From Candidatus Rifleibacteriota bacterium (GTDB lineage: Bacteria > Muiribacteriota > Ozemobacteria > Ozemobacterales > Ozemobacteraceae): a stretch of DNA of 22,170 nt. The stretch covers positions 1-22,170 of the forward strand of contig JBNJGH010000054.1 of assembly GCA_051747585.1 (NCBI GenBank), written 5' to 3'. The notes under the pieces were generated by a model that was not told the origin of the DNA, did not search any database, and saw only the letters and a program-made list of their open reading frames with translations. Positions 1-18,851 of this stretch are shown one piece after another (positions within the stretch are counted from its first letter, which is position 1; each line of letters opens with the position of its first letter). Made by a program: the position numbers and the translations under genes.

Positions 1-712
1 TCATATAGACGCCAGACCAAAATTTATGTGGTATGAATTTGGTGTGCGCACCAAAGATAACGTCGAACTGATACTTGGAGTAACCTTTTTCTGGCAGATT
101 GAAAATGTTGATAAAATGGTAAGAACTACAGACGACGCCCCCGGCGATATTTGCTCACATGCCCGGAGCATGATTATTCAGTCGGTTTCTAAATCGCCAT
201 TGGAAAAGTTTCTCGATAGCTTTAACGATGTTGTAAGAGCGGCTATCATCAATGAAGATGACCCATTTTATCAGCAACGGGGTGTCAAAATTCACTCAGT
301 GGAAGTTCGTTCGGTGACCTGTAAAGAAGCAAGTACCCAACAGATATTGCAGGAAATAATTCAGGAAACTACCAATCGACTCAATCGTTTGCAAAAACAG
401 CAAAGCGAAAATGAAGTCAGCTTGAATCAGGTCAAAGGAAACATAGATATTGAAAAGCAAAAGGCTGATTTGCTTAAAATAAAAAAAGCAAATGCTTTAA
501 AAGAGGCCGAAAGTGCAGGAGAAGCTGAAGCAGCAAAGGTTGCAACATTTTTCGAAAAACTGGGCGGCTCAGTAAAAGAGAAAGAAAAGTTAACCATCTT
601 TAACACCCTTAAAAAGGTTGAGTACATCGACAAGCTTGGCAACAGCAAAGCCAGCATGTTTTTCACACCGCAGGATGTAGACCTCAGAATAGAAGCAAAG
701 CCCGGACAATAA
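1..712 (+). CDS. SPFH/band-7 (stomatin/flotillin-like) domain protein; 5' end truncated by the window edge, since the frame stays open back to nt 2
   Basis: The ORF is open to the left edge. It has a band-7-like core followed by a long Lys/Glu/Ala-rich coiled-coil tail (KQKADLLKIKKANALKEAESAGEAEAAKV), which is typical of SPFH proteins. Stop TAA at 710-712. Confidence 0.55.
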   Translation, partial: HIDARPKFMWYEFGVRTKDNVELILGVTFFWQIENVDKMVRTTDDAPGDICSHARSMIIQSVSKSPLEKFLDSFNDVVRAAIINEDDPFYQQRGVKIHSVEVRSVTCKEASTQQILQEIIQETTNRLNRLQKQQSENEVSLNQVKGNIDIEKQKADLLKIKKANALKEAESAGEAEAAKVATFFEKLGGSVKEKEKLTIFNTLKKVEYIDKLGNSKASMFFTPQDVDLRIEAKPGQ

Positions 713-749: not shown

Positions 750-2357
750 TTAGAGCTCTTTCATAAGTGATTCGAGAATTTCCCGCTTTTTATCCTCGTC
801 GTCTGTATGACGCATAAAGTCAGCCAGTTTAAGCATGAGTTCGGCATAAAGATTGTGAGAATCTTTTCCGGTGGCTGCTTCTTTTGGAAGCCCTGCTCCG
901 GTAGCTACAGGTTTGATTTCTTTTGGAGCTTCTTTTTTAACAGGTTCAAGCAGGTCAAAGGTTTGCCCTATTTCAGGAATAACAGTATCAAAGCCCTTCT
1001 GTTCTTTAATCAAACGGGCAAACTCTTCTGATGCTTCTTGATCACCATGAACAACAAACACGTTTCCGTTGACTTTTTCGACTTCTTTTATCCAGTTTAA
1101 CAGACCTTTCTGATCTGCATGCCCTGAATAACCATCGATGCGCTCAATTTTGGCTTCAACCGAAACTTCTTCACCATGAATTCGTACGGTTTTATTGCCT
1201 TCGAAAATATAGCGTCCGAGGGTTCCGTGGGCCTGATAGCCAACAAATATTACCGTATTTTCGCTTCCCCAGAGATTATGCTTCAAATGATGCTTGATAC
1301 GCCCTGCAGTACACATGCCTGAAGCAGATAGCAAAACTATGCCTTTCTGACCATTTAGCGCTTTGGATTCTTCAACAGACTCTGTAAATCTAAAGTCAGG
1401 GTGATCGAATAGACCGCCCATACTTTTCATTACATCGCGAGCATCCTGGTCATAGCATTCCTGATGTTTAACAAAAACTTTGGTAATATTGGTGGCAAGT
1501 GGAGAATCGATAACCACTTTAATACCCGGGATTTCTTTACGCTCTTTGAGAATTAAAATGTCATGCAATAAATCTTGAGTTCTTTCAAGGGCAAATGACG
1601 GGATCAAAATATTTCCGCCTCTTTTAATTGCATTCTGAAAAATTTCTGCCAATTTCTGCAAACGCTCTTCTTTTTCTACAATTTCTCTGGATCGATCGCC
1701 ATAGGTAGATTCTACCATCAGATAATCGGTTTCTTTAAATGAGTCAGGATCTTCAACAATTGGATGGTCATCTTCACCAAGATCACCTGAGAAGACGAGT
1801 TTGCGTTCTTCGCCATTCTCTTTTACAAAAATTTCGATAAATGAAGACCCAAGAACATGACCGGCATTATGAAATTTAACTTTGCATCCTTCTGCAGGTT
1901 CAAAAAATTCATAGCGCTTAACCGGGCTCATAAGAGAAACCGCTTTGTCTGCATCTTCAAAATCATAAATGGGGGCAACCTGCGGCAGTCCCTTTCTTTC
2001 GTTACGGCGATTCTTGTGCATAACATCCATTTCCTGAATATGCGCCGAATCAGGAAGCATGTATTGCAATAAATCTATTGTCGGCTCAGTGGTATAAATT
2101 TTGCCGTTAAAGCCGTGCTTAACCAGCTTGGGCAAAAGTCCCGAATGATCGATATGCGCATGAGTGACAAGAACAAAATCAATACTGGCAGGATCGTAGG
2201 CAAAATCTTTATAGTTATTTTCTCTTAAAGTTTTGTTGCCCTGAAACATACCACAATCAACTAGAAATTTAGTTTTATCAGTTTCAATTAAATAATTCGA
2301 ACCGGTCACACAGCCGGCAGCACCGTGAAATGTAATTTGCATAGCTTTCCTTTCCAA
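750..2357 (-). CDS. MBL-fold metallo-hydrolase of the beta-CASP RNA-metabolising family (RNase J/CPSF-like), with a Lys/Pro-rich C-terminal extension
   Basis: HxHxDH motif (VTHAHIDHSG), then Asp/His beta-CASP motifs (GDLGEDDHP ... HGDQ) and the GYSGHAD motif. 535 aa. The start is 4 nt downstream of the preceding 143-aa ORF's stop, so the two are probably translationally coupled. Confidence 0.8.
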   Translation of the reverse strand: MERKAMQITFHGAAGCVTGSNYLIETDKTKFLVDCGMFQGNKTLRENNYKDFAYDPASIDFVLVTHAHIDHSGLLPKLVKHGFNGKIYTTEPTIDLLQYMLPDSAHIQEMDVMHKNRRNERKGLPQVAPIYDFEDADKAVSLMSPVKRYEFFEPAEGCKVKFHNAGHVLGSSFIEIFVKENGEERKLVFSGDLGEDDHPIVEDPDSFKETDYLMVESTYGDRSREIVEKEERLQKLAEIFQNAIKRGGNILIPSFALERTQDLLHDILILKERKEIPGIKVVIDSPLATNITKVFVKHQECYDQDARDVMKSMGGLFDHPDFRFTESVEESKALNGQKGIVLLSASGMCTAGRIKHHLKHNLWGSENTVIFVGYQAHGTLGRYIFEGNKTVRIHGEEVSVEAKIERIDGYSGHADQKGLLNWIKEVEKVNGNVFVVHGDQEASEEFARLIKEQKGFDTVIPEIGQTFDLLEPVKKEAPKEIKPVATGAGLPKEAATGKDSHNLYAELMLKLADFMRHTDDEDKKREILESLMKEL

Positions 2358-2361
2358 TTAT

Positions 2362-2793
2362 TCAGGAAGATATTTTAACTGAATTGGTTATCGGCAGTTT
2401 TTTTCTTTTAGCATAGGCAAGCAATTTATCTCTTCTAATGCTGTGCTCAGTCTCAAATTCGCCGCCTCGATCAGTTTTATAAGCTACACGAACCATTTTA
2501 CCCCAAGCGTTATGAGTGGTAGTTACCTCTGTGGGTTTACCTTTATCAGGGGCTTCAAAGGTTCTTGGCAAAAAACAAATAAGACCATATTGGCCTGGTC
2601 CGATTAGATAAACATGTGCCTGAAGATTCGGCGGCAATTTCTTATATTCATCGGGAAAAAGTGGAATATAAGTTGCTACCGAACCAAAGTCTCCCTGATC
2701 GATAAGTGCGGCGTAGGGTCGCGAAAATCTTTTAAGACCAAGGGTTTCGAGTATTTTTTCTATAATTTCCGGGGATACTGTTTTTACTGCCAT
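2362..2793 (-). CDS. Hypothetical 143-aa protein with no family recognised by eye
   Basis: Clean ORF with an ATG start. It is tightly coupled to the downstream MBL hydrolase gene (4-nt gap) and lies 70 nt downstream of alr on the same strand. Confidence 0.5.
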   Translation of the reverse strand: MAVKTVSPEIIEKILETLGLKRFSRPYAALIDQGDFGSVATYIPLFPDEYKKLPPNLQAHVYLIGPGQYGLICFLPRTFEAPDKGKPTEVTTTHNAWGKMVRVAYKTDRGGEFETEHSIRRDKLLAYAKRKKLPITNSVKISS

Positions 2794-2863
2794 TGCGCGC
2801 CATTCTATTAGTTAATTAATTGTGATTCAAGATATTTTTTTTATGTTTTGAATTTATACTGCT

Positions 2864-3988
2864 TTAAAAAGGGTCAAAATAACGCTTAACCCTGCTGTTA
2901 ATCTGACAGGTAACTTCATAGGTAATAGTATTTAATTTTTCGGCCCATTCATAAGCGCTTATCTCTTCTTCTTTATCATTTCCAATTAAGGTAACCGTAT
3001 CACCAACCTTGACTTCTGTTTCTTTGCCAAGATTACACATGCTCTGATCCATGCATACCCTGCCAACCACAGGATAAGACTTACCATTAATCAAAACTCT
3101 GCCTGAATTGGAAAAAAGTCGATTGAACCCGTCGGCATAACCAGCCGGAAAAGTTGCTACCCAGGTTTCTTCAGGAGCAATCCAGGTTCTGCCATAGCCA
3201 ATAGATGTACCCTTTTCCACCTTCTTAATAAAAGAAACCCTGGTCTTGAAACTCAAACCTGGCTTCAGATCTATGGTCTGGGGGGTCTCATTGGAAGGGT
3301 AAAACCCGTAAATCATAATTCCGGGGCGCACCATATCAAGCCAACCATCAGAGTGGGCCAGAACTGCTCCGGAATTGGCACAATGAACAAGATCAAATTT
3401 AAAATCGAGCTCTTGTTCTATGCCTTTGACAATTTTTTTAAATCTGGAAATCTGGCGGTCGGTAAATGAAGTATTGGCTTCATCACTTACGGGCAAATGA
3501 GTCATTGCAGCGGTCAATTTTAAATGCGGGCAATTTTTTATTATTTCTCTGGTAAGTTCGGTTGCATTTTCAGGCGCTACTCCGATTCGGCCCATACCGG
3601 TTTCAATTTTTATATGAACATCGACTGTTTTTCCCAGTTCTGCTGCTGTTTTCTCGAGAGTTCTTACATTTTCAAGATCTATAACAGTCAATGTAAGTTC
3701 AGAATTAACCGCTTCTGCCATTTCTTCAGGAAAAACAGGGCTGAACTTAAGAACAGGAAGTTTGATGCCGGCCTGACGCAATTGAATGCCTTCCGGGACT
3801 GTTGCTACTCCAAGCCAGTCGATTCCGATTTTTTCTGCCATTTTGGAAACTTCTACAGCGCCATGCCCATAAGCATTAGCTTTTACCGCAATTAAAATTT
3901 TTCTTTCAGAACCAACAGCTTTTCTTATGTTTTCCAGATTATATCTAATGTTATTAAGATGAACCTGTACATGAGTCTGATAAAGCAT
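2864..3988 (-). CDS. alr: Alanine racemase (PLP-dependent). Start placed at the ATG at 3988 rather than the TTG at 4003.
   Basis: PLP-lysine motif AVKANAYGHG, plus GMGRIG, HCANSGA and RVCMDQ signatures. A strong SD (GAAGGTGAG) lies 6 nt upstream of the ATG at 3986-3988. The orr stop lies immediately upstream (gap 1 nt), so the genes are translationally coupled. Confidence 0.8.
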   Translation of the reverse strand: MLYQTHVQVHLNNIRYNLENIRKAVGSERKILIAVKANAYGHGAVEVSKMAEKIGIDWLGVATVPEGIQLRQAGIKLPVLKFSPVFPEEMAEAVNSELTLTVIDLENVRTLEKTAAELGKTVDVHIKIETGMGRIGVAPENATELTREIIKNCPHLKLTAAMTHLPVSDEANTSFTDRQISRFKKIVKGIEQELDFKFDLVHCANSGAVLAHSDGWLDMVRPGIMIYGFYPSNETPQTIDLKPGLSFKTRVSFIKKVEKGTSIGYGRTWIAPEETWVATFPAGYADGFNRLFSNSGRVLINGKSYPVVGRVCMDQSMCNLGKETEVKVGDTVTLIGNDKEEEISAYEWAEKLNTITYEVTCQINSRVKRYFDPF

Positions 3989-3989
3989 A

Positions 3990-5081
3990 TTACTCACCTT
4001 CAATTACAACTTTATGCACATATTCTGAAGTAGAAAGAGCCAGTAAAGCACCATAATCGGGATAAAAGCCAATTTCATCGCCAACCTGATATTCACACCG
4101 GCTGTCATGCACATCCAGTATCAGATGGTCACTCGAACCACCCAGAACAATAATTCCCTCATCGATTGGGGTTATGCCGTCAACTAATACATCCTGACGG
4201 CCTAAATTGCAAATAACTCTTTTTCTGTTTCCGCGGTCGACAAATTCCTGAGTCTCGCCAAAAGCGTCCTGACCTCGATCTCCGATTGGTAACGAAGGTT
4301 TCATTTCTGCCTCTATTACTTCGCCCACAGTAACAAAGGTATCCTGCCTGGTTTCTGGCCAGGGCGAACGATCTGTAACATTACGACCAAGAATTATAGA
4401 TTCTCCGATTCGATATAAATTAATTTCTTCGGGTAATTTGCCCTCACGCATAATTGGCAAACCGGAACTGTTGCCACCGCAAATTACCGGCAGCTCCAGG
4501 CCGCTATACTCTCTGCACTTTTCGACTGTATCTATAAGCAACTTCATGTTTTCAGCCGAAGGTTTAACACCTCCATAACAGGCAAGATTACAGCCAAGTC
4601 CAACAGCTTCCAGACCTTTGAGCTCACCGGCTTTTTTTACCAGCTCAGGAGCTTTGGCTGGCCAGGTACCCTCTCGCAGATCGCCGACATCAATCATTAT
4701 AATTACTCGGTGGAGCAAATTTTTCTGGCAAGCTGCTTCAGATAAGGCTTCTAAAGTTTTAAAGCTGGAATTCAAACTATAATCTGCAAGTTCGACAACC
4801 TCATGAGCCTTTGAAATCGAGGGTAAGCGCAATAAGAGAAACGGCCCTTTAAACCCGGCCTTTCTAAGTTTTTCGATATTTTCAAGCCTGGAATCTGCCA
4901 GCATATCGGCACCGGCTTCTTCAAGAGCTCGGGCAACCCGGGGGTGAGCAGAGACTACTTTTGTAACGCAGGCAACTTTGATTTTATTTTGATGGCATTG
5001 TTTTATTACAGCTTTTGCGTTTTGTTTGATACGCTCGGGATAAATTTCGAGTCTGGGAGTTTTAAACCTTCTGGTTTGCAT
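3990..5081 (-). CDS. orr: Ornithine racemase-like PLP enzyme (alanine-racemase-fold, YhfX/Orr family). Start is uncertain: ATG at 5081 (preferred, 4 nt after the MutL-like stop), or the alternatives at 5099 or the TTG at 5120.
   Basis: VTKVVSAHPRVARALEEAGADMLADSRLENI, LLLRLP, MIDVGDLREGTWP, GLGCNLACYGG and GGNSSGLP match what I recall of Clostridium sticklandii ornithine racemase. Its position downstream of oraSE and the mutL-like gene mirrors the known ornithine-fermentation cluster. Confidence 0.65.
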   Translation of the reverse strand: MQTRRFKTPRLEIYPERIKQNAKAVIKQCHQNKIKVACVTKVVSAHPRVARALEEAGADMLADSRLENIEKLRKAGFKGPFLLLRLPSISKAHEVVELADYSLNSSFKTLEALSEAACQKNLLHRVIIMIDVGDLREGTWPAKAPELVKKAGELKGLEAVGLGCNLACYGGVKPSAENMKLLIDTVEKCREYSGLELPVICGGNSSGLPIMREGKLPEEINLYRIGESIILGRNVTDRSPWPETRQDTFVTVGEVIEAEMKPSLPIGDRGQDAFGETQEFVDRGNRKRVICNLGRQDVLVDGITPIDEGIIVLGGSSDHLILDVHDSRCEYQVGDEIGFYPDYGALLALSTSEYVHKVVIEGE

Positions 5082-5085
5082 ATCT

Positions 5086-6429
5086 TTAAAGCTGTTCATA
5101 TTGCTTAATCCAATCTTCAAAAGTATTTTTTATGAGTTCAGGGTATTCAATGGCTATAGTTCCCAGGGCGGAAAAAAGGTAATCTCGGTCAAGGAATATT
5201 TGAGCATCGGGTTTAGGCAAAAGAGATCTGGCCGGACCGGTGCAAACCGATTCAAGTATTTTTTCGCCTCCATCTACTCTGGTAAGAGCCCCACCTGTTC
5301 CGATAACCCATTTTACTGCGGATAAATCTTTTCCTCTAATAATTTGTTTTTTACCCGAGGGAGTAAAAAGGTCGCCAATTACTCCGGCATGTCTTTTAAC
5401 GCCGGCTTCAACTGCCTTTTTACATAACCACCTGGTAATTTCTTTTTCCTGTTCGGTTGCAGGCATTGCTTTAATGTCATCTACTCTCTGCATCCAGATT
5501 TCGTCATCTGCCAATTCAAGAACATTACGGGCATTGACAAAAACACCGAGATCACCCTCGACGGTACGTTTACATCTTGGTTCAGGATCTATGAGTTTGT
5601 CGGCAAATTCTGTACTGCCTTCGGTTACAGAATGCACATCAGTAGTAGCACCACCCACATCAACTATCAGGCAATCACCGGCTACCTCGGCAAACAATTC
5701 TGCCCCCTTTAGAACAGCTCCTGGCGTCGGAATAATCTGGCGCTCAGTAAGACTTTCGAGTCTGTGCATACCCGGAGCATGAATAATGTTTTTTGAAAAA
5801 AGTTGCTGCATTTTCTTTCGCAGCGGTTCAACTTCAAGCACGTCGACATCAGGAAAAACATTGGGTGTAATTAAAAGCTCTACACCTGTTTTTTTGAAGA
5901 TATTGGCAACCGCTCGCTTCAAAGCGCTATTACCGGCATAAACAACCGGAACATGCAGGTCAAGCGAAGCAATTTTTATGGCATTCTGTAAAACAACTTC
6001 TTTTGCTCCAAAATCAACTCCACCAGCCAGAACGATCATATTAGGCTGAATTTCTTCTATTTCTTCAAGATCAAATTCGCTTAAATCACCGGCAGTAACC
6101 ATTTTTATTATTGCTCCGGCACCGAGACTGGCCTCTCGTGCCGCTCTGGCAGTCATATTATAAGTTAAACCATGAACCGTAACCCTTAGACCGCCGGCAG
6201 CAGAACTATTTGCAAAAATTTCGGCATTATCGCTGTCAGCACCAGACTTTTGTTCAAGGTCATCAATAGCACTTTTGAGTCCAATTCCAACATTGCCCTG
6301 CTCGACAGTTGTCGAAGCAAACCCCTGAGCTACATGCTTCAGAGAGTTGTGATCTGTTTTAACAAAACCATTTGCTTTTGTAATGGTACTGCCGACTTCA
6401 AGCGTTAAAATTTCTATTTTCATGCTCAT
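5086..6429 (-). CDS. MutL/GlmL-like protein (glutamate mutase component L family; ASKHA-type putative reactivating chaperone for B12-dependent mutases). Start placed at the internal ATG (MSMKIEI...).
   Basis: N-terminal LEVGSTITKA, SSAAGGL, GAGA and VDVGGATTDVHSV motifs are typical of MutL/GlmL. The SD GAAGG lies 8 nt upstream of the ATG at 6429. The longer ORF reaching 6492 has no RBS and overlaps a predicted promoter. Confidence 0.7.
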   Translation of the reverse strand: MSMKIEILTLEVGSTITKANGFVKTDHNSLKHVAQGFASTTVEQGNVGIGLKSAIDDLEQKSGADSDNAEIFANSSAAGGLRVTVHGLTYNMTARAAREASLGAGAIIKMVTAGDLSEFDLEEIEEIQPNMIVLAGGVDFGAKEVVLQNAIKIASLDLHVPVVYAGNSALKRAVANIFKKTGVELLITPNVFPDVDVLEVEPLRKKMQQLFSKNIIHAPGMHRLESLTERQIIPTPGAVLKGAELFAEVAGDCLIVDVGGATTDVHSVTEGSTEFADKLIDPEPRCKRTVEGDLGVFVNARNVLELADDEIWMQRVDDIKAMPATEQEKEITRWLCKKAVEAGVKRHAGVIGDLFTPSGKKQIIRGKDLSAVKWVIGTGGALTRVDGGEKILESVCTGPARSLLPKPDAQIFLDRDYLFSALGTIAIEYPELIKNTFEDWIKQYEQL

Positions 6430-6463
6430 TAATTTACCTTCTGCATAAAAAAATTGGAAAACA

Positions 6464-6492
6464 ATACTACCACAGGCCAACTGCTGCCTCAA
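6464..6492 (-). promoter_or_regulatory. Candidate sigma70 promoter for the mutL-like/orr/alr operon: TTGAGG, 17 nt spacer, TAGTAT (read on the minus strand)
   Basis: The -35 and -10 hexamers were seen directly in the sequence at the correct spacing, ~30 nt upstream of the SD/ATG at 6429. Confidence 0.3.
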
Positions 6493-6507
6493 CTATCTCT
6501 CTGAATA

Positions 6508-6521
6508 GTCAGGGCAATTGC
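6508..6521 (-). promoter_or_regulatory. Copy B of the repeated motif GTCAGGGCAATTGC (core CAGGGCAAT), centred ~85 nt upstream of the mutL-like start codon
   Basis: The same 9-11-mer occurs at 9760-9770 (same orientation, ~94 nt upstream of oraS) and inverted at 7026-7040 (just downstream of the oraE terminator). Confidence 0.35.
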
Positions 6522-6709
6522 ATTAAAATCCTGAACCCCACATTAACTCTTGGCAGACAGTTTCATCTAAATAATCAGCAATTTTCAGTGAACCGTTATA
6601 AGCTGGTTTTCAAAAGTTTTGCTTTTATTTCTTTCTGTCAAATATAGAATTTTCACCACCGAGATCACAGAGTGCACCGAGACAATTTTTTAATCTTTTT
6701 CAGCCTATG

Positions 6710-6775
6710 TTCACAATATTACTCAGCATTCAGAAAAGCATTAATGTTTTTCTGAATGCTGAGTAATATTGTGAA
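6710..6775. repeat. 66-bp near-perfect palindrome: 28-nt arms ttcacaatattactcagcattcagaaaa / ttttctgaatgctgagtaatattgtgaa around a 10-nt spacer gcattaatgt that is itself one mismatch from palindromic
   Basis: Verified base by base. The right arm (6748-6775) is the exact reverse complement of the left arm (6710-6737). Confidence 0.9.
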
Positions 6776-6776
6776 A

Positions 6777-6818
6777 GCCGGACGGTGAAACCGCCGGCTG
6801 ATTGTCCAAAGGACAATC
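6777..6818. other. Two further tandem stem-loops immediately after the palindrome. The first is a GC-rich hairpin GCCGG(a)CGG-tgaaa-CCGCCGGC (6777-6798). The second is GATTGTCC-aaa-GGACAATC (6800-6818).
   Basis: Both stems were checked by direct complementarity. On the minus strand the GC hairpin is followed by TTTCAC. Confidence 0.6.
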
Positions 6819-7025
6819 CACGGCTGAAAAAGATTCTCTGTGATTCTCTGAGGGCTCTGTGGTTATTTTCTTTGTGGCTTTGAGGCTTGGTGTGAGGCAA
6901 ATTCTTTTCTGAAATGATTTGATAGTCGCTGACCAAGAATTGCTATACGCAAGCGTTGTTTTTGCTAACAAAAGCGAGCAAACGTAGATTTATGAAAATG
7001 AAATGTCTGCCCGATTTTTTTTGTG

Positions 7026-7040
7026 CGATTGCCCTGTCAG
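7026..7040 (+). promoter_or_regulatory. Copy A (inverted) of the CAGGGCAAT motif: cgattgccctgtcag on the + strand, which reads CTGACAGGGCAATCG on the minus strand
   Basis: Forms a long-range inverted pair with copy B (6508-6521), flanking ~520 bp of structured non-coding DNA. Confidence 0.3.
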
Positions 7041-7085
7041 AATAAGAAAAAGCTCCGGTGCGTCGCCATCAGCAAGCACCGGAGC
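7041..7085 (-). terminator. Rho-independent terminator of the oraS-oraE transcript: stem GCTCCGGTGC / GCACCGGAGC with a 14-nt loop, followed on the minus strand by TTTTTCTTATT
   Basis: 10-bp perfect GC-rich stem at 7052-7061 / 7076-7085. On the minus strand the U-run follows immediately, 14 nt after the oraE stop (7099-7101). Confidence 0.7.
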
Positions 7086-7098
7086 CCTGTTTGTCAGT

Positions 7099-9303
7099 TT
7101 AGATTTTACCTTTTTTCTTAAGGGTTTTAACGATTGAATCTACCACTTGAATTCCTTTGGAACCCCGACCGAATCCGTCATCCATACCGCATTCCTGCGC
7201 TATTTCTCTGGTAACCTGAGTTCCGCCACAGATCAGAATAATATCATCTCTTATTCCTTTTTCGCGACAAAGTTCATCGAGCTTGCGCATGTTTTTACGA
7301 TGAACATCATTATGGCTGATAATTGTACTGATAAGAATGGCCTTGGAACCGGTTTCGATTGCGGCATCAACCATTTTGCTAACCGGAACGGAAGTGCCGA
7401 GATAATGATATTTAGCACCAAATTTTTCAATTCCGGCGTGTTTAATATCAAGTATTTCGCGTAGTCCGACCGAATGCTCGTCTTCGCCTACGGTTCCAGC
7501 AACAACAGTAAGTCCGGCTTTTTTGATTCCTTCGCGTATTTCGTCTTCTGAAAGCATTTGAACTTTAGGAGGAATTTTAAGATTGGTGCGATCAATCGAG
7601 AAATCAACTTTACCCTTCACCTCAAGGAAAGTGCCTTCTGATGGATGGATAACCTGCGCATTGGTAACTTCGGGTTCGAGCAAACCCATCTTTTTAGCAA
7701 TTTCATTGGCCGCTGCTTTGGCTACTTCGAGCTCTTCGGGCAGGAAAATCTGAACAAGAACGGTTCCATCACCCGCCCATTCTACTTCAGGTTTAATTGA
7801 TTTACCTTTACGGTATTCAATTGTTTTTTCGAGCCTCAAATTGCAGTTGTCAGTCTGGTCAATTTCATCTATGTAATGAATTTTTTCTGGTTTGCACAGA
7901 GTGCAACCATCAATAAGGTCACAAGGCTTTTTAATATTTTCCGGCAGTTTGTTATGACCAAAATTGCTGCAAACCGGTGCCATATAGTCTTTTTCTCGTT
8001 CGACTATGGTATCAATACCTACGCCACCCTTACCGCTTCTTGCGATTCCATCACCGTTTCGTTCAGGATATTTGGCCGAATCAACGAAGAAACCTTTTTC
8101 GACGGCAGCAAAGTATCCGCCGCTTTCCAGCATTTCTTCAAGGAAGCAAATCGCTCTGATCTTGAGGTCTCTTACCATTTCGCCCAAGGGGCCTTCGCGA
8201 TCAATTTTAAGCAGTTGCTTGATGCCATCGAGAGCTACCAGGGTCTGCTTTGCGGTTTCCACCCCTCTGACACTGTTATAATGCCATGGCACGTTTCTAC
8301 CTTCATCTGGAGTTATTGTACTTTGAATATCGGAATGGGTTAGAGCAGTTATAAGGGTATCAATAACATGAGTACGAGTTGCTTCTTCAATATCGGATTC
8401 TATATATCTTGTATTTTGCTGAGCTCGGAATTTAAATTCTTTAAAGAGATCTCTTAAAGCAACAGCATAAGGAAGATCATACCAGAGTTTTGGTGAAGGA
8501 GGAGCACATGGTGGAACAGTTGAAAGCCCGATTTGTGACTTTGGCATTCCTACAGCTACAGAGAAAGCACAGTTGATACCATGCTGAACCATAAGTTCAG
8601 GCATGACTGCCCAGCCTTCGCGTGCGGTAGCATTTGCATTATGGGCACCATCAATCTGAAAAATATGAGCATCTGCCATTATTTTTTTCGCATTTGCCGC
8701 ATCAGTAAATGAGCGATACATGTTTACATTGCGATAAAGAACATTATATTGAGGATCCTGGTGCGCACCGTTTATTCCTTCTTCGGCGAATAGAACAGCA
8801 ACTTCGGGACCTGCTACACCGGAAACATAAGAATGAAAGTTAATCGGGCGCCCGACTTCATCTTCAATCATATCGCAGGCTTTTCTTGAGGCTCTGATCT
8901 GCTTTCTGGTTATTGGAACCCCTCCGACTCCTTCGGGTGTTCCTTCGAGTAAGCCATCGATGTGGCTTTGCCCGGTTGTTCTAATAACCATAATATGGTC
9001 AGCGCCGTGCCATGCGGCCATTCTCATACGACGAATATCATCTTCAAAACGACCTGAAGCTATTTCTGTGCTGATAACAGGTTTAGGCTGAGGATCTATG
9101 TTATTAAAATATTTTGCAGCAGGCAGGGGAACCGAATTTTTTAACGGTTCGCTCATGTCTTTAAAATTGAACTTTTCTACCTTATAACCATCTTTTATAT
9201 GGTTGCGCCAGGTCCAACCTTTGCGCCGAGGATGATAATCCTTTAAATTTGTGAGTATTTCTTCTATATCGAGTTTTTTTTCGGGGTTTAATTTTTCTGT
9301 CAT
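7099..9303 (-). CDS. oraE: D-ornithine 4,5-aminomutase large subunit E, B12- and PLP-dependent (a KamD/KamE-like fusion)
   Basis: 734 aa. The motif run PRRKGWTWRN ... IASGRFEDDIRRMRMAAWHGADHIMVIRTTGQSH ... GAHQDPQYNVLYRN matches what I recall of C. sticklandii OraE. The C-terminal B12-binding Rossmann domain carries a DxHxxG motif (EDEHSVG). SD GAAAGG lies upstream of the ATG at 9303. Confidence 0.9.
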   Translation of the reverse strand: MTEKLNPEKKLDIEEILTNLKDYHPRRKGWTWRNHIKDGYKVEKFNFKDMSEPLKNSVPLPAAKYFNNIDPQPKPVISTEIASGRFEDDIRRMRMAAWHGADHIMVIRTTGQSHIDGLLEGTPEGVGGVPITRKQIRASRKACDMIEDEVGRPINFHSYVSGVAGPEVAVLFAEEGINGAHQDPQYNVLYRNVNMYRSFTDAANAKKIMADAHIFQIDGAHNANATAREGWAVMPELMVQHGINCAFSVAVGMPKSQIGLSTVPPCAPPSPKLWYDLPYAVALRDLFKEFKFRAQQNTRYIESDIEEATRTHVIDTLITALTHSDIQSTITPDEGRNVPWHYNSVRGVETAKQTLVALDGIKQLLKIDREGPLGEMVRDLKIRAICFLEEMLESGGYFAAVEKGFFVDSAKYPERNGDGIARSGKGGVGIDTIVEREKDYMAPVCSNFGHNKLPENIKKPCDLIDGCTLCKPEKIHYIDEIDQTDNCNLRLEKTIEYRKGKSIKPEVEWAGDGTVLVQIFLPEELEVAKAAANEIAKKMGLLEPEVTNAQVIHPSEGTFLEVKGKVDFSIDRTNLKIPPKVQMLSEDEIREGIKKAGLTVVAGTVGEDEHSVGLREILDIKHAGIEKFGAKYHYLGTSVPVSKMVDAAIETGSKAILISTIISHNDVHRKNMRKLDELCREKGIRDDIILICGGTQVTREIAQECGMDDGFGRGSKGIQVVDSIVKTLKKKGKI

Positions 9304-9321
9304 TATGCCTAACCTTTCTAC

Positions 9322-9672
9322 TTAAAAAAGATTGTCGAGAGTTGTTTTGTCTTCGGCGATTTTTTGGGCCGCTTCAGGAATTTTGATGTTGTTTTTCTCT
9401 GAAACGCGCAAAACAACATGCCCGGCACCTTTACCAAGCAATCCGGCTTCCTTGACAACATTTACAACTGCTTGAGAGGTCATACTATCTATGCCCATGC
9501 GCAATAATACAGAACGCTCGATTGAAGGCGAAGTAAAATTACGCCCATAATCAACCATGGGTTCAACAACTTTTTCGCATAAACTCCAGAACTTGTCTTT
9601 AAGCTCATCATTGCTCATTTTTTCGAGTTCTTTACGACGAGCTTCAAACTTTTTAATTCTTTCTTCGCTCAT
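9322..9672 (-). CDS. oraS: D-ornithine 4,5-aminomutase small subunit S
   Basis: 116 aa. SPSIERSVLLRMGIDSMTSQAVVNVVKEAGLLGKGAGH matches the conserved OraS core. It lies 18 nt upstream of oraE, with the SD AAAGGA before its ATG. Confidence 0.85.
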   Translation of the reverse strand: MSEERIKKFEARRKELEKMSNDELKDKFWSLCEKVVEPMVDYGRNFTSPSIERSVLLRMGIDSMTSQAVVNVVKEAGLLGKGAGHVVLRVSEKNNIKIPEAAQKIAEDKTTLDNLF

Positions 9673-9759
9673 ACCAATTCCTTTCGAACTAATAATTTCA
9701 TTTTATGCCAAGACTGTAACTCGTTTTGCCCATTTTTACCACCCTAAATTGTAAAATTT

Positions 9760-9770
9760 TCAGGGCAATT
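9760..9770 (-). promoter_or_regulatory. Copy C of the CAGGGCAAT motif (tcagggcaatt), centred ~94 nt upstream of the oraS start, in an A/T-rich context
   Basis: 11/11 identical to copy B in the same orientation relative to the downstream minus-strand operon. Confidence 0.35.
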
Positions 9771-9788
9771 TTTTAAGTATGGCCAAAG

Positions 9789-10289: not shown

Positions 10290-10342
10290 TCTTAATTTTT
10301 TCTCCCGCTTGCTGTTTTTATTCTGAAATGGTATTTTAACGG

Positions 10343-10371
10343 ATCTGATATGATTGACAACCTTTAAGCAA
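10343..10371 (+). promoter_or_regulatory. Candidate sigma70 promoter TTGACA, 17 nt spacer, TAACAT, upstream of the PsiE-like gene; divergent from folA
   Basis: The hexamers and spacing were seen directly. The SD GGAGAG at 10388-10393 precedes the TTG start at 10397. Confidence 0.35.
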
Positions 10372-10396
10372 AGTCATAACATAAGATGGAGAGAAC

Positions 10397-10828
10397 TTGG
10401 AGTCAAACGAAATAAAAAAAGAGAACAAAGAGATGCCCAGGGTAACCAGAATATCTAAGTTACTGCATAGAGCGACGTTATGGAGCGAACGTATCTTAGC
10501 TATTTCCATTCTATTGGCAATGGCGGTATTTTTTTATACGATGGTTGCCTCAACCGGTAGCTATGACTGGACAAAAACCGAAGCGCTCTATGACATCATC
10601 AATAGAATACTTCTTCTGGTTATTTGCCTGGAATTGATCAGGACTCTTCTTACCCATGACCTTGAGGCGGTATTGGAGCTACTTGCCTTTGTAGTAGCCA
10701 GAAAAACCATGGTTCCGAACCTGACCGTGATAGATATTCTGTTAAGCGTTATCGCTTTTGTCTTATTAATTCTGGCAAGAAAGTATTGTATACCGACAGA
10801 CTCTCCGCTTAGACTGGCGCGCAAATAA
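10397..10828 (+). CDS. PsiE-like small inner-membrane protein (phosphate-starvation-inducible E family), 3-4 TM helices. Start is either the TTG at 10397 (good SD) or the ATG at 10433.
   Basis: Size, hydrophobicity pattern and the loose pattern DWTKTEALYDIINRILLLVICLELIRTLL resemble PsiE. The start codon at 10397 is TTG. Confidence 0.5.
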   Translation: MESNEIKKENKEMPRVTRISKLLHRATLWSERILAISILLAMAVFFYTMVASTGSYDWTKTEALYDIINRILLLVICLELIRTLLTHDLEAVLELLAFVVARKTMVPNLTVIDILLSVIAFVLLILARKYCIPTDSPLRLARK

Positions 10829-10878
10829 CAATAAAAGTCTTCAAGTTTTCTCAAATTTGTATTTGCACCTGGACTTTT

Positions 10879-11772
10879 ATGTTAAAAAAACAAAATAAAC
10901 TGGCAAGGCTGTTAAAGAACTTTATTTTCAGTGGTCTTGACGAAAACAATACCGACATAGAAACCCTTCGACAAGTTGGGATGCTTAATGCTTTAATTGT
11001 TGTAAGCCTTATAATTCTTTTCCCTTTAAGCATTATCGCTCTAAAGCAACAACTATATCAGCTTTTATTCGTCGAAACACTTGTGTCTATTTCTCTGATT
11101 TCGATTGTCATTTTTATGCGCAAAACCAGCGACTATTGTAAAGTTTCAATTCCCACAGTTGTTATTGCCGGAATCTTTTATGCGTATCTGCTTACTACAG
11201 GAGGGAAAGCCAACACCGGATTCATCTGGATGTTTTCTTATCCATCAATAGCAACCTTTCTTCTCGGAATCAGAAAAGGCATTTTTTTTTCCTTCCTGCT
11301 TTTTATTTACAGCCTGGCTATAATGTTTGCCGAGCAAAATATTGTTCCAACTACTGCAAACTACACATTTAGCTTGAGTGTTAGAATATCTTTTTCTTAC
11401 TTATTGATTTGTCTTTTTGCCTGGGCAGTCGAATCAACCAGAGCAACTGCGCAATTTGAATATCATCAAATAAACGATGAACTACAAGATTCATGTAAAG
11501 AGCTGGAAAAAAGACATCACGCAAAAAAAGAAATTATAACCGAACTACGCGAAGCCATAGTCGAAGCAGAACAATTAAAACGAATTTTGCCCATCTGTTC
11601 CAGTTGTAAAAAAGTTAGAAATGATACAGGCTACTGGGAAAAAGTCGAACGATATTTTAACCAGCATTCCGGAACAAAATTCAGTCACAGTGTTTGCCCG
11701 GACTGTGCAAACATCTATTACAAAGATATTTTAGACGATGAAGAAAACGGCAGTGCCCGAAAGATTGTATGA
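10879..11772 (+). CDS. Membrane sensor-like protein: six predicted TM helices, a coiled-coil linker, and a C-terminal Cys4/His2 (CxxC...H..H...CxxC) zinc-ribbon-like module
   Basis: Six hydrophobic segments in residues ~35-185, the coiled coil ELQDSCKELEKRHHAKKEIITELREAIVEAEQLKR, then ILPICSSCKKVRNDTGYWEKVERYFNQHSGTKFSHSVCPDCANIYY. The stop overlaps the next gene's ATG (ATGA). Confidence 0.7.
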   Translation: MLKKQNKLARLLKNFIFSGLDENNTDIETLRQVGMLNALIVVSLIILFPLSIIALKQQLYQLLFVETLVSISLISIVIFMRKTSDYCKVSIPTVVIAGIFYAYLLTTGGKANTGFIWMFSYPSIATFLLGIRKGIFFSFLLFIYSLAIMFAEQNIVPTTANYTFSLSVRISFSYLLICLFAWAVESTRATAQFEYHQINDELQDSCKELEKRHHAKKEIITELREAIVEAEQLKRILPICSSCKKVRNDTGYWEKVERYFNQHSGTKFSHSVCPDCANIYYKDILDDEENGSARKIV

Positions 11773-12611
11773 AAAATTTCATTAATTTTTTAAAAGGTTT
11801 TCCGGCGCCTGAAGAGGACGATAGATTAAATATCGAGCTCCGGCGAAAAATAACGGTACTGAATCTGTTTTTGCTAATAGGCAGTTTTTTTACCTTTATT
11901 CTCGGCATTATTACATTTAGGAGCGGCAACACTTTCATTACCGCCGTAGATACTCTTGCATTGTTAATCTTCAGCTCGCTTTTTATTTATTTGCGAAACA
12001 ATAGAAACTTTGAACGCTGCGCAACTCTTTCAATTTTTTTTGTCGGACTTTTTTTTGTTTTTCTTTTTGCTACGGGTGGAATAGATAAAACCTCTTTTGT
12101 CTGGGTTTTTCCTTTTCCAATGATTGCAATTTATCTAACCGGAGTTAAAAAAGGAACTTATGCAACTTTAATTATGCTCTTTGCTATGATTATTGTATTT
12201 CTTACCGGTTCCAGCATACCCCAGTTTGCAAATTATGAATTTAATGTCAAAATTCGTACTATTCCAGCATTTATTTTAATAACCCTGTTTTCTTTTACGA
12301 TTGAAAAAATGACTTTGCTTGTCAGTAATAAACTTCTAAGCGCAAGAAAGTTACGAGAGAAAAATTTACACAAGTTAAAACAGATGGACGAAGAGAACGA
12401 AAAGCTTATAAAAGAACTTGAAAGCAAGCTTGGTGAAGTAAGAAGTTTGCAAACTATTTTACCAATTTGCTCAATTTGCAAAAAAATTAGAAACGATGAT
12501 GGCTATTGGGAAAAAGTAGAAAAATATTTTCATCAGCATTCGGGCACCGTTTTCAGCACCAGTCTTTGCCCTGAATGTGAAAAAAAACCTTCTAAAAAAC
12601 CCGACAATTAA
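11769..12611 (+). CDS. Paralogue of the preceding gene, with the same architecture (6 TM, coiled coil, C-terminal Cys4/His2 module)
   Basis: C-terminus ILPICSICKKIRNDDGYWEKVEKYFHQHSGTVFSTSLCPECEKK is near-identical to the upstream paralogue. The membrane domain is divergent but colinear (TGG..GF.W.F..P). Confidence 0.7.
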   Translation: MKNFINFLKGFPAPEEDDRLNIELRRKITVLNLFLLIGSFFTFILGIITFRSGNTFITAVDTLALLIFSSLFIYLRNNRNFERCATLSIFFVGLFFVFLFATGGIDKTSFVWVFPFPMIAIYLTGVKKGTYATLIMLFAMIIVFLTGSSIPQFANYEFNVKIRTIPAFILITLFSFTIEKMTLLVSNKLLSARKLREKNLHKLKQMDEENEKLIKELESKLGEVRSLQTILPICSICKKIRNDDGYWEKVEKYFHQHSGTVFSTSLCPECEKKPSKKPDN

Positions 12612-12613
12612 AA

Positions 12614-15325
12614 CTATTTTTCTTTGTCGCTATTTTCGTCTTCTTCCATGTTGTCTTCTGCAGCGGGAAAAATTCGATAAATAATAATTAAAAGAATCAG
12701 GGTTACTAACCCCATAACAAAATAAAGACCCCAGCCTTTTTCACTGAATGCATCTTTAATGTTCTGTTTCACTGCAGGTTCTGAATAAGTATTTATTTCT
12801 TTAAGTGCTATTTTTCGAGGCTCTTTGGTTAAAAGCTCGTCACGCACCAGCTCAAGATCATATTCCGGTTTTTCGGCGTTGGAATTTCCACCATAAATCA
12901 AATAACTACCGGGCTGAGAGGCTTTAAAAAAGAGATCCTGAGTAGAATAAACCGCATTAACTGCAGTAACAACCACGGGACTGTTTTCGTTATGCATAAC
13001 AACTAATTGAAGCTGATTTTCACCTACAGGTAGATTCTTTAACGATAGTAAAAAGCTGTTATTCGGGTTTTCACCCTTCCATATCATGGTTTTCCATTCA
13101 CGCCAGCCAAGATTCCCGGGTTTGGGCAAATTAACTTTGATCGAGCGCTGAAAAGTTCCCGGAAGATTAAATGAAAGAGATTTATAAAACTTCGATGCAA
13201 CCGGCAGGTGAATATTATAAGTGGTTATATTCTTTTCCCGGTCGTAACTTTGCTCGAAAGACAGAGCAAAAGCTTCATTATAAGGTTTTCCGAGGAAATA
13301 AGGGATCTGATTACCGTTTTTTACAATTCTTATTGAATCGCGATGATTATCTAAAGCAGCCTCATGATTAAGTTTAAGCTGGCATAGACCTGCGACGGGC
13401 ATAGTAAAGCTCCCTACCCAGCGATAACCTTGTCCCTTAAAAGGTGCTCCTTCAGGCTTCATGGCAACTGCCGGCGAAGTTTTTGTTTCGGAGCCATTAA
13501 AATAGATCAGGTCTGAATGAGAAACTTTTTCAGGAAACAATTCCGCTAATTTATCCTGAATCATTTTAAGGTCATAACTTGGCCTTTCAGCGTTTTTATC
13601 ACCACCATAAAGCTGGTATTTTCCCGAGCCTGAAGCTATAAAATAAAGATCACGGACATTGATTTCAGCAACAATCGATTCAAGCGGTAAAGAGTAGTTA
13701 TTACCGTTATCGATTACAATTTTTATTCTTTTCTGGTTTTGCGGAAAATCCTTTAAAGATAAATCAATTACAATCTCTTCGTTCTTTTCATTTCGCAAGT
13801 TTAAGCGTTTAAAAACCTGCCATCCGACTTTGCCGGCAGTATGTTTGTATAAAGTAACATCGCGGTCAAAAATTCCTGAGGTTTTTATTTTGAGCCGATC
13901 GGGGTTTCTTTTGCCCGATGGAAAATCTATATAAAAGATTGAATGATTTTTTTGGGCATCGAATTCCTTTTTATAATTCAACCGATAATCACGCTTATAA
14001 TAACGCCCTCTAAAATAGGGGATCTGTTGTTGGTCTTTAACTATGCGCAGACTGTCTAAATAATTGTCAAAAAAGACTCTTGAAGATAATTCAAGCTGAT
14101 AAAACCCGGGCTTATCTACATTCACATCAGCTTTCCATTTGTATCCATCAGCAGAAAAGGGACCACCGGCAAGAGAAATATCTTTTAACACACTTTCTGC
14201 CTCGTAATCGCTATTATGTTCGACTTCACCGCTTTTCACCTGCATTGGAGCCCGACCTTCGAGCACACTTGCAAATTCAAGAATCTTTTGGTTTTTATTA
14301 AGACCGGTTTCAAGACGATATCTACCGGATATATCTGCAGAAAATACAATGCGGGGTAAGCGAAATCGGGCACTAATTGAAACAATTTTTCCGTAATGGT
14401 CAGCCGGACTTAACTGAAGAATAAGCTTTCGGCTTTTCCAGGTTCGGTTAACAGGAATACCTACATTCTGGGGATCCTGACGCATCGTTTCAAAGCCACC
14501 CGATAAGATTTCATTGAATTCGGGTCTGCCAAGAACAAACTTTTCTGTTCCCACGCGCCATTTCCCTTTAAACATTGCAGAGGTTTCAACTATCAGTTCT
14601 TCAATAAAAATAGATGTTCCGGGCAGGTTTATTCGCAACTCATCGGCATTTTCTCTGTTTATAACGTCGTAAGACAAAAAGTTGGTAAGATTCTTATATC
14701 CTTTTCCGCCTCTTCTTCCCTTTACATAAACGTCAACTGAACTAATTGGCGTTTGGCTGAATTTTTCGTCAAAGCCCGAGAAACGCAATCTGATCTTTTC
14801 TACCACTTTTTCTTCTGTTTCTATTCTGACAATTCCCGTTAATTGCTGTGGACTGGAGCGGAGTATGGCAGCTCCAGTAGCAACACTGTGCCATCTATTA
14901 TCATAAAAGATCTGGAATTCCATTTTTGCAGCCGGTGGAGCATAGGGCAAATTAACTTGAATACCGCTAATCAGGTGATTCTTCGGGACATCTGCCTGCC
15001 ATAAAAGCTGGTTATCTTTTTCCCACTCCGTTTTATCGGCTTTGATTCTTATCAGGCTCTGGTCTCCAGATTCGCGCCAATATAACTCAAGTGCTCTGGG
15101 CTGGCTGTCTGGTCCGAAAAGGCTTAAATCAAGACAATTGTTAACTATTTGTCCATTTTCATCTATAAAACTTTTATGCAATTCCGGTTCAAGAAATGAA
15201 TTTACAGTTCCCGTTGCAACTACATCTAACTCAGCACGACTTAACCATTGTGAAGCAAAAACAATCGGAGAAACAAAGACAAAAATAAAAAGAATTATGA
15301 TTTTATAGTTAAAATTAGCATTCAT
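12614..15325 (-). CDS. DUF3999-like exported protein: signal peptide, internally duplicated large extracytoplasmic region, C-terminal TM anchor and acidic tail
   Basis: N-terminal signal peptide MNANFNYKIIILFIFVFVSPIVFASQ and C-terminal TM GLYFVMGLVTLILLIIIYRIF followed by EDNMEEDENSDKEK. Internal repeats are present (DSLRIVKDQQQIPYF / DSIRIVKNGNQIPYF, and DLYFIASGSGKYQLYGGDKNAERPSYDL / DLFFKASQPGSYLIYGGNSNAEKPEYDL). The ATG at 15325 is preceded by the SD GGAGAAA and lies 4 nt after the upstream gene's stop. Confidence 0.7.
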   Translation of the reverse strand: MNANFNYKIIILFIFVFVSPIVFASQWLSRAELDVVATGTVNSFLEPELHKSFIDENGQIVNNCLDLSLFGPDSQPRALELYWRESGDQSLIRIKADKTEWEKDNQLLWQADVPKNHLISGIQVNLPYAPPAAKMEFQIFYDNRWHSVATGAAILRSSPQQLTGIVRIETEEKVVEKIRLRFSGFDEKFSQTPISSVDVYVKGRRGGKGYKNLTNFLSYDVINRENADELRINLPGTSIFIEELIVETSAMFKGKWRVGTEKFVLGRPEFNEILSGGFETMRQDPQNVGIPVNRTWKSRKLILQLSPADHYGKIVSISARFRLPRIVFSADISGRYRLETGLNKNQKILEFASVLEGRAPMQVKSGEVEHNSDYEAESVLKDISLAGGPFSADGYKWKADVNVDKPGFYQLELSSRVFFDNYLDSLRIVKDQQQIPYFRGRYYKRDYRLNYKKEFDAQKNHSIFYIDFPSGKRNPDRLKIKTSGIFDRDVTLYKHTAGKVGWQVFKRLNLRNEKNEEIVIDLSLKDFPQNQKRIKIVIDNGNNYSLPLESIVAEINVRDLYFIASGSGKYQLYGGDKNAERPSYDLKMIQDKLAELFPEKVSHSDLIYFNGSETKTSPAVAMKPEGAPFKGQGYRWVGSFTMPVAGLCQLKLNHEAALDNHRDSIRIVKNGNQIPYFLGKPYNEAFALSFEQSYDREKNITTYNIHLPVASKFYKSLSFNLPGTFQRSIKVNLPKPGNLGWREWKTMIWKGENPNNSFLLSLKNLPVGENQLQLVVMHNENSPVVVTAVNAVYSTQDLFFKASQPGSYLIYGGNSNAEKPEYDLELVRDELLTKEPRKIALKEINTYSEPAVKQNIKDAFSEKGWGLYFVMGLVTLILLIIIYRIFPAAEDNMEEDENSDKEK

Positions 15326-15329
15326 AGTG

Positions 15330-18300: not shown

Positions 18301-18821
18301 TCTGAAAAGAAATTGGACCAGTCGAATTGATTGTTTTCAGGTGGTCTTGGCGGGGTTGGCGGTGATTTATGGGCAGAAGCAGCAGGCTTGGAAACTTTTT
18401 CAGGTTGTTCATCTAGATGCTTTGCTTCAGGCTCGTCAGGCTGTTTGGCCTGTTTTTCGGCAGACTTGCGTTTAATACTCTCTGCCAGCCATTCATATTC
18501 TTCTTCTTTTGTTACTCCTGTTTTTTGTTCGTCGATAACCTTTTCGGACTCTTCTTTATTAACCGGCTCGTCAGAAAAAGAAAGTTCAGAAAAATCAGCT
18601 ACTTCATCGCTTTGCTTTTCTGTCTTTTTATCTGGTTGAGATTGTGGTTCAGTTTGTTCATATTTATCAAGCCTCTTTTTAAGTATATCCAATCGATCTT
18701 TAAGAAGCTTGACCTGAAACTGAAGGGTTTCTGTAATTTCTTTGTTTTGCTCTTTTAATCTTTTGACGCTCGACCAAAGAGCTGCAAGCAAAATCAGTAT
18801 TAATAAAACCAGAATTTCCAT
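15330..18821 (-). CDS. DUF2339-like giant polytopic membrane protein (1163 aa): N-terminal TM, coiled coil, acidic/Lys-rich and Pro-rich linker, then ~25-30 TM helices
   Basis: The architecture was read from the translation: MEILVLLILILLAALW, then LQFQVKLLKDRLDILKKRLDKYEQ, then PPTPPRPP, then a continuous run of hydrophobic segments to the C-terminus. A strong SD AAGAGGA lies 7 nt before the ATG at 18821. It pairs with a DUF3999-like gene, as in the known DUF2339/DUF3999 gene pair. Confidence 0.7.
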   Translation of the reverse strand: MEILVLLILILLAALWSSVKRLKEQNKEITETLQFQVKLLKDRLDILKKRLDKYEQTEPQSQPDKKTEKQSDEVADFSELSFSDEPVNKEESEKVIDEQKTGVTKEEEYEWLAESIKRKSAEKQAKQPDEPEAKHLDEQPEKVSKPAASAHKSPPTPPRPPENNQFDWSNFFSEIDWERFTGTQLFAWLGGLALFVGAGFFVKYSIDNNLISPIMRLVVAAIIGVGLIGASFVFDRKRYNILRQTFSAGGIGVLYSVFFAATLYYEYLAKMPGFAALVVVSVAALSLALFHRGVSIAFLGALGAYLTPLLVNTGQGNILTLFIYLVIVNLGLYQVIKRLKSGGLLLFSSLGTMVTLALVAMFSRPSPITSHIAITFAAHLALYSIYFLKLEFNYSTNRLAAWAVRLSTFAMPFAAFVLAIYRTGPSPLLLIVATVAALVVLAYRIRFFFEDVIPLSVFAFLVTACWVFFRLNPQISSWAYLLFFAYGIAGGLGPVLLVHKYGLNQQILKWFKIFPSALALLSLMALLINPDTAFLFWPMTIGIQLMGIALSLVFSAFAPLFVLTLILVFSAIIFISKASVITFGLAFYAFILMAGLAICIVTFIFLRNAAAIAQKLNFETPIKENKNNLSAINEWAAASPIMGMFFILAAAFFKSQPLNPNPGMVTMFCFLVIAQTLARRLNYGYLGIASLLSAVLAQAFWVLRPDLLLSHHFTALLWSIAFFVIALIIPFVAFKNFEKYKKSWMGWPVFELLQAVFIVYAADHIWARSISGLIPLILALVKIPVVLILLRQLEKNTARNSILAFHGGAMLFYVSAVPALMLEAGWLGLVFVFEATALLWLNRRIEHPGLRYVASVLSPIGIYLIISYFPQLKEAGGIKVLNPVVLSALAGSISCVLAVKLAGYPDEKPCSWFNIVKYFKWIAFGFTFYFFNVLAVDIFSDVKHNVSLAKTGVWFVYGLMMHKWPKKLDNSYRLAGLILIFIGILASVLFPFRYAAEFGKMAPLFNQVSALYLLITFITLWLLGRKKVAEEWPLYSINEIPFWSVTLALLSFAYLNIEIASFFGSKGSSFSLLTHGRFAQQLSYSLGWLFYAIALLGAGIRWNAVRARQAALVLIIVTSVKIFLKDLWSLGQLYRVASFIGLAVILMLVSYLYQRFLSNMKEK

Positions 18822-18851
18822 TAAATATCCTCTTTAGACCTTCTGACTGTT

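Follow-up and report, generated by a model that had tools for sequence, protein, structure and literature searches.

A cluster for oxidative L-ornithine degradation, very likely canonical and interrupted between ortB and oraS, in a Riflebacteria bacterium

The stretch of contig JBNJGH010000054.1 analysed here (assembly GCA_051747585.1, 22,170 nucleotides; hereafter the window, meaning the whole stretch) carries on its minus strand the ornithine genes oraS, oraE, or-4, orr and alr. We consider it very likely that they serve oxidative L-ornithine degradation by the canonical route in an Ozemobacteraceae-like member of the Riflebacteria, and that the cluster is interrupted and not incomplete. Four direct observations carry this reading: the genes can be identified, a fragment of ortB stands at the right-hand end of the window, relatives with ord-ortA-ortB show a collinear gene order, and the active site of OraE is conserved. 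As the pathway is already well understood and only the host lineage is new, the main value of the analysis lies in correct annotation; mildly new are the phylum-wide break in a cluster that elsewhere stays strictly contiguous, and a short, apparently mobile insertion in the oraE/or-4 spacer.

Following the steps of the oxidative ornithine pathway as published (PMC8803604, PMC13397332), and with enzyme activities predicted from the gene identities, Orr would racemise L-ornithine to D-ornithine, and OraS/OraE, aided by the GlmL-like Or-4, would shift an amino group to give 2,4-diaminopentanoate, which Ord would oxidise to 2-amino-4-oxopentanoate. OrtA/OrtB would then convert this compound, with CoA, to acetyl-CoA and D-alanine, and Alr would turn D-alanine into L-alanine. 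In this clade, about 12 kb of unrelated genes (an RRM/DUF4185/DUF2339/900-residue block, MASE genes and folA) would have entered between ortB and oraS. Judged from the encoded enzymes, ornithine is probably fermented in this Riflebacteria lineage along the standard route dependent on B12 and pyridoxal 5'-phosphate (PLP). The ornithine genes of the window, with folA, are as follows.

21654-22170 (-): ortB 3' end (2-amino-4-oxopentanoate thiolase beta subunit), cut by the window edge; NF040741, 250 bits
9789-10289 (-): folA (dihydrofolate reductase); PF00186, 176 bits
9322-9672 (-): oraS (D-ornithine 4,5-aminomutase S subunit); PF16552, 140 bits (cut-off 29.7); PDB 3KOW chain E, E = 4e-29
7099-9303 (-): oraE (D-ornithine 4,5-aminomutase E subunit; adenosylcobalamin and PLP); NF040743, 1322 bits (cut-off 800)
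5086-6429 (-): or-4 (GlmL/MutL-like; putative aminomutase reactivase or chaperone); PF13941, 479 bits; NF040744, 548 bits (cut-off 600)
3990-5099 (-): orr (putative ornithine racemase); NF040742, 398 bits (cut-off 480); Lys/Cys motif
2864-4003 (-), probable start 3988: alr (alanine racemase); TIGR00492, 382 bits (cut-off 168); PF01168 and PF00842

The initial annotation of this DNA, made from its letters, had named oraS, oraE, a MutL-like gene, an orr-like gene and alr, and Pfam and NCBIfam profile matches bear out all five, which lie on the minus strand; coordinates and profiles likewise agree with its placing of folA upstream of oraS and of a 143-residue open reading frame (ORF) and a metallo-beta-lactamase (MBL)/beta-CASP gene at the tail. 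The ATG at 6429 taken as the start of or-4 agrees with the gene call in the relative L001 (loci compared with the window are given L numbers). An exact-sequence look-up of the window OraE matched no record.

The ortB fragment and the relatives that carry ord-ortA-ortB

It had been claimed that none of ord, ortA and ortB lies within the window. This does not hold for ortB: at 21654-22170, on the minus strand, a frame free of stop codons runs up to the window edge and specifies the C-terminal 171 residues of OrtB. This end of ortB shares its strand with oraS, which lies 12 kb downstream. The mechanical ORF list had given this end of ortB as an anonymous ORF of 152 residues (21654-22112). The fragment matches NF040741 and no other model (profile positions 291-460 of 464, 250 bits, E = 3e-74), shows 92% identity to P0288, a full-length OrtB that itself scores 799 bits against the same profile (cut-off 550), and shares 60-72% identity with the C-termini of OrtB from 80 genome loci. 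A protein search with the 171-residue fragment returned short fragments only and missed the full-length relative, and P0288 was found by a later search that used full-length OrtB as the query. An apparent lack of genes can arise simply from where a fixed window ends.

The closest OraE proteins come from metagenome-assembled genomes of Candidatus Riflebacteria / Ozemobacteraceae, with 79-97% identity. The nearest relative (L001-L004, 97% OraE identity) repeats the order of the window from DUF2339 through folA-oraS-oraE-or4-orr-alr to the 143-residue and MBL genes. The contig of P0288 (L122) has the order ord-ortA-ortB-RRM-DUF4185-122aa-DUF2339-899aa-MASE, and both its Ord (542 bits, cut-off 400) and its OrtA (123 bits, cut-off 70) score above the equivalog cut-offs. 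L122 and L001 overlap by 7373 nt at 99.99% identity and therefore form one continuous arrangement from ord to the MBL gene, the tiled order being ord-ortA-ortB-RRM-DUF4185-122aa-DUF2339-899aa-MASE-MASE-143aa-folA-oraS-oraE-or4-orr-alr. The window follows the gene order of L122 from ortB through to the MASE genes, at 78-83% nucleotide identity. OrtA and Ord also stand directly upstream of ortB in L123, L012 and L014, and the Rifleibacteriota contig BAAHFH010000012.1 at NCBI (GCA_054681895.1) carries ord-ortA-ortB (ortB at 67738-69141) with oraE (87461-89659) about 18 kb downstream. By comparison with these relatives, ortA and ord probably sit just beyond the window edge in this genome too. An outcome foreseen by the initial annotation, a canonical but split pathway, thus proves essentially right, except that the split spans only 12 kb on one strand and that ortB lies partly within the window.

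The cluster of Acetoanaerobium (Clostridium) sticklandii and Clostridioides difficile comprises orr, oraS, oraE, ord, ortA, ortB and or-4. The window resembles it in OraS, OraE (64% identity, same active site), a GlmL-like Or-4, an Orr in which a Lys/Cys motif can be read, OrtB and the logic of the pathway (PMC8803604, PMC13397332), but differs in that the host belongs to the Riflebacteria and not to the Firmicutes, that alr is appended after orr, and that a break of about 12 kb separates ortB from oraS. Metagenome-assembled genomes of Anaerolineae, Holophagales and Spirochaetota, and Candidatus Ozemobacter sibiricus, have contiguous clusters with the same content and order within each half, terminal alr included, and with OraE 72-81% identical; unlike the window, where ortB and oraS are 12 kb apart, contiguous clusters have less than 400 nt between the two genes (61/61 loci).

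Several points weigh against the reading of a canonical, interrupted pathway. Outside the window lie ortA, ord and ~293 codons at the 5' end of ortB, and the presence and integrity of all three in this genome are presumed from the relatives. The best match of Or-4, NF040744, scores 548 bits against a curated NCBIfam cut-off of 600, and Orr likewise falls under its own (398 against 480). A search for shared 8-mers found no regulatory motif common to the regions upstream of ord and oraS, and an insertion of 527 bp between oraE and or-4, described below, could lower the output of the genes or-4, orr and alr.

The substrate of the aminomutase and its companion genes

OraE of the window shares 64% identity with the crystallised enzyme of C. 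sticklandii (PDB 3KOW chain A). For the latter, E81, Y160, S162, H182, H225, R297, Q299, E338, H618 and K629 are reported to bind D-ornithine, PLP and cobalamin, H618 being the histidine ligand of cobalamin, K629 the lysine that holds PLP and E338 a ribose-binding residue, with the others as substrate contacts (PMC3958899). Mapping the residue numbers to the SEQRES index took no shift up to 187 and a shift of -3 from 225 on. We added Y187, which we take to be an eleventh key residue and which is not mentioned in PMC3958899. In the alignment to 3KOW_A, all eleven cofactor and substrate residues, Y187 included, are identical to those of the C. sticklandii enzyme.

The D-lysine 5,6-aminomutase KamDE (PDB 1XRS) shares its fold and both cofactors, adenosylcobalamin and PLP, with the ornithine enzyme, and its models give a weak secondary match to the window OraE (NF052384 and NF052385, ~145 bits, about ten times below the OraE score). 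His225 is a contact specific to ornithine aminomutase, with Asp at the equivalent place in the lysine enzyme (PMC3958899); the window OraE, unlike KamDE, has the histidine. The initial annotation had suggested that the aminomutase might have been recruited to a different substrate, and had named identity of the active-site residues with those of C. sticklandii as an argument against this; that comparison has now been run, and with all eleven residues identical and 1322 bits against a cut-off of 800, a new substrate for OraE is not supported.

For ornithine racemase we looked for a fold-III PLP enzyme with a catalytic lysine and with a cysteine in place of the tyrosine of alanine racemase, the published catalytic pair being Lys-36/Cys-164 (PMC13397332). 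Read from the unaligned sequence, Orr of the window has K47 (in VTK) and the motif N171-L-A-C174-Y, with lysine and cysteine 127 residues apart as against 128 in Salmonella OrnR; a PDB sequence search with Orr gave no match. Of the 53 canonical loci that extend 1.5 kb or more past oraE, 52 have or-4 in the orthologous position, L053 being the exception. As for alr, which follows orr in 34/43 canonical loci from other phyla, its conserved terminal place fits the release of D-alanine together with acetyl-CoA in the thiolase step (PMC13397332), an explanation that the initial annotation had already offered and that agrees with the data.

These results bear on a broader alternative, namely that the oraSE-or4-orr-alr genes as a whole have been recruited to another D-amino acid or another pathway and act without ord and ortAB. 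Two things speak for it. The halves lie 12-18 kb apart in this clade, and in 13 other Riflebacteria genomes the distance exceeds the available flank of 6.5-10 kb 3' of ortB; and Orr and Or-4 score under their curated cut-offs. We nevertheless hold it to be extremely unlikely, given that the active site of OraE is that of the D-ornithine enzyme at all eleven residues, with a score far over its cut-off, that Orr retains the Lys/Cys motif of OrnR, that ortB lies on the same DNA and ord-ortAB is kept in every relative examined, and that oraS directly follows ortB in all 61 loci from other phyla.

The interruption between ortB and oraS

In loci with enough flank from other phyla (Anaerolineae, Holophagales, Spirochaetota and others), oraS begins less than 400 nt after ortB in 61/61 cases, and within the Riflebacteria Candidatus Ozemobacter sibiricus (OraE 81% identical) has an unbroken ord-ortA-ortB-oraS-oraE-or4-orr-alr cluster. 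This shared arrangement indicates, on the comparison of gene orders, that the contiguous state is ancestral and that Riflebacteria broke the ortB/oraS junction in several ways. In L007 (OraE 83% identical), ord-ortAB lies 6 kb upstream of oraS with four genes between, among them an IS110 transposase, and oraSE is missing from the available flank of all 17 Riflebacteria ortB loci, a flank that in 13 of them amounts to 6.5-10 kb downstream.

The ord half varies as well. In the Riflebacteria loci L015, L016 and L018-L021, and in L017, L022 and L023, ortA-ortB occurs without ord in the available flank (up to 10 kb upstream), or with ord divergent on the opposite strand, and the ord half has therefore also been rearranged in the phylum. 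Ord of Riflebacteria falls into two types, with ~49% and ~65-73% identity to the Ord of L007.

In the window, the block between the two halves lies outside the pathway, to judge from Pfam matches and from the gene order shared with relatives, and comprises the following.

10290-21653 (mixed strands): the whole intervening block
21077-21385 (-): RRM protein
19217-21004 (-): DUF4185-like gene
18852-19241 (-): gene of 129 residues
15330-18821 (-): DUF2339 membrane protein, 1163 residues
12614-15325 (-): protein of 903 residues without known family
10879-12611 (+): two MASE6/11 genes
10397-10828 (+): gene of 143 residues, upstream of folA

This order is repeated in L122, L001, L009, L011 and L012. 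It is conceivable that the RRM/DUF4185/DUF2339/900-residue block is tied to ornithine catabolism, for example through uptake or sensing, as it has the orientation of the ornithine genes and the same position in the window, L122/L001, L009, L011/L123 and L012. Against this, the DUF2339 gene and the gene of ~900 residues, sometimes with an RRM gene ahead, form a pair in 13 metagenome loci, of which 12 show no ornithine genes and one, L113, has the 3' end of ortB upstream; neither O. sibiricus and L007 nor any of the 61 canonical loci has the block in its cluster; and a strong terminator (21037-21063) lies 3' of the RRM gene. We therefore find such a tie improbable in the extreme, and the DUF2339/900-residue pair is a module independent of the ornithine genes. 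The metagenome scan with the window DUF2339 protein gave no match; the alignment-based DUF2339 scan reached relatives at ~40% identity only, and was used solely to show the independence of the module. The 13 metagenome loci of the module fall among L092-L114; in the closer relatives, the DUF4185 gene and the gene of 129 residues stand ahead of it.

The two genes at 10879-12611 (+) encode tandem paralogous membrane proteins with MASE6/MASE11 sensor domains (297 and 280 residues), in which no output domain was detected; the full-length pair is restricted to the window and its closest relative (L001-L004, L122).

Adjacency of folA and oraS is confined to the window and L001-L004, being absent in L005, L007, L009 and L011; oraS is preceded by a gene of 922 residues in L009 and by a divergent gene of 134 residues in L011. 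By this comparison of gene orders, folA is a lineage-specific neighbour of oraS and not a conserved one. By contrast, about 90 nt of the 5' region of oraS (9673-9788, minus strand) are conserved across the clade whatever gene precedes, which suggests that oraS has its own 5' control region, and a promoter-like site lies upstream of oraS at 9776-9748. The segment 9673-9788 is thus probably the promoter and leader of oraS itself, a function that we infer from conservation. A sigma-54 reading of this leader was rejected, the spacing from GG to GC being 9 nt, not 10, as judged by eye.

The oraE/or-4 spacer and the flanking genes

The spacer between oraE and or-4 measures 669 nt (6430-7098) in the window and 129 nt in L001. 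Two features were delimited in it.

7040-7086 (-): terminator-like hairpin (7051-7086) followed by a T-tract (7040-7050); RNA fold of -28.7 kcal/mol for a 69-nt segment containing it
6510-7036 (no strand): MITE-like insertion of 527 bp, non-coding (MITE, miniature inverted-repeat transposable element); not present in L001

The sequence of the hairpin is identical in L001; non-homologous but analogous hairpins occur in L005, L007 and L011, and there is none in L009. The initial annotation had described a terminator plus a structured spacer of 550 bp splitting the cluster into two transcription units. The hairpin with its T-run is there, and so is the strong structure (z = -10.3); the length has to be amended to 669 nt, 527 of them inserted. 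A boundary between transcription units at the hairpin or the insertion may exist, as far as these features allow such a boundary to be predicted.

The termini of the insertion read CAGGGCAATYGCA and form imperfect terminal inverted repeats of 19 nt (CAGGGCAATCGCA... / ...TGCAATTGCCCTG). The insertion contains a central palindrome with 33-nt arms (6710-6775), folds from end to end (the z-score given above) and has no ORF of more than 76 residues. With Rfam at gathering thresholds, no riboswitch or known RNA was found, and at permissive settings only microRNA models matched the long hairpin, together with a sub-threshold cobalamin match inside folA. In L007 (12285-12344) and L008, the same oraE/or-4 spacer holds a 60-nt element whose ends are similar. 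Like MITEs, the insertion is short and non-coding, has terminal inverted repeats and a strong fold, and is present or absent between close relatives; unlike them, it has no second full copy in the sequences examined, a scan of viral contigs for the palindrome gave none, the target-site duplication is ambiguous, and no cognate transposase was found. On these features it looks like a lineage-specific MITE-like insertion rather than a designed regulatory element.

The insertion raises the alternative that the pathway is decaying in this genome, with or-4, orr and alr severed from their promoter and the upstream half perhaps damaged. Its strong fold, its position between oraE and or-4, its absence from the closest relative, and a consensus promoter scan that found none between the insertion and or-4 are in keeping with such a decay. 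Yet all the reading frames of the cluster are intact and 88-97% identical to those of L001, no stop codon interrupts ortB as far as it can be seen, and the insertion lies in non-coding DNA; consensus promoter scans are, moreover, weak evidence, as the promoters of a candidate phylum may differ from the consensus used. We judge decay to be very unlikely, and retain the reading of a canonical pathway whose cluster is interrupted.

Different inserts are found at ortB/oraS according to lineage, and the 527-bp and 60-nt elements lie in the same spacer; on these grounds one may ask whether the ortB/oraS and oraE/or-4 junctions are preferred landing sites, perhaps by way of terminator hairpins, with the two halves independently regulated. 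We think this unlikely.

The regions upstream of ord in relatives (L122 at about 8860-8905; L123, L012, L014) have a clear shared promoter, CTTGCCCTTTGA...AAGTGaTATAATACCGC. It is followed by a palindrome, GGCAA-N2-3-TTGCC, in L122, L123 and L014 and not in L012, which could be an operator. The GGCAAT core of this palindrome resembles the ends of the spacer insertion, probably by coincidence.

Beyond alr, the left part of the window holds two genes of the tail.

2362-2793 (-): hypothetical protein of 143 residues without family match
750-2357 (-): MBL/beta-CASP hydrolase; Pfam Beta-Casp, RMMBL and Lactamase_B

The protein of 143 residues (2362-2793) has no Pfam match even at a permissive E-value. 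The pair accompanies the ornithine cluster in Riflebacteria only, and does not follow alr in L007 or in any locus outside the Riflebacteria. In O. sibiricus (L005) it is kept 4 kb from alr, with a transposase and two PmbA/TldD genes between. Being kept when detached and absent elsewhere, the pair is, on gene order, a separate two-gene module that neighbours the pathway and is not a component of it. Among NCBIfam models, the MBL/beta-CASP/RMMBL hydrolase best matches that for type VII CRISPR Cas14, with 393 bits falling well short of the cut-off of 800; aCPSF1 comes next. At 26-712 (+), cut by the left edge, lies the C-terminal part of a Band_7/SPFH protein, the full form of which in relatives (465 residues) also matches Vault_3 and MVP_shoulder (major vault protein), an unusual mix for a bacterium.

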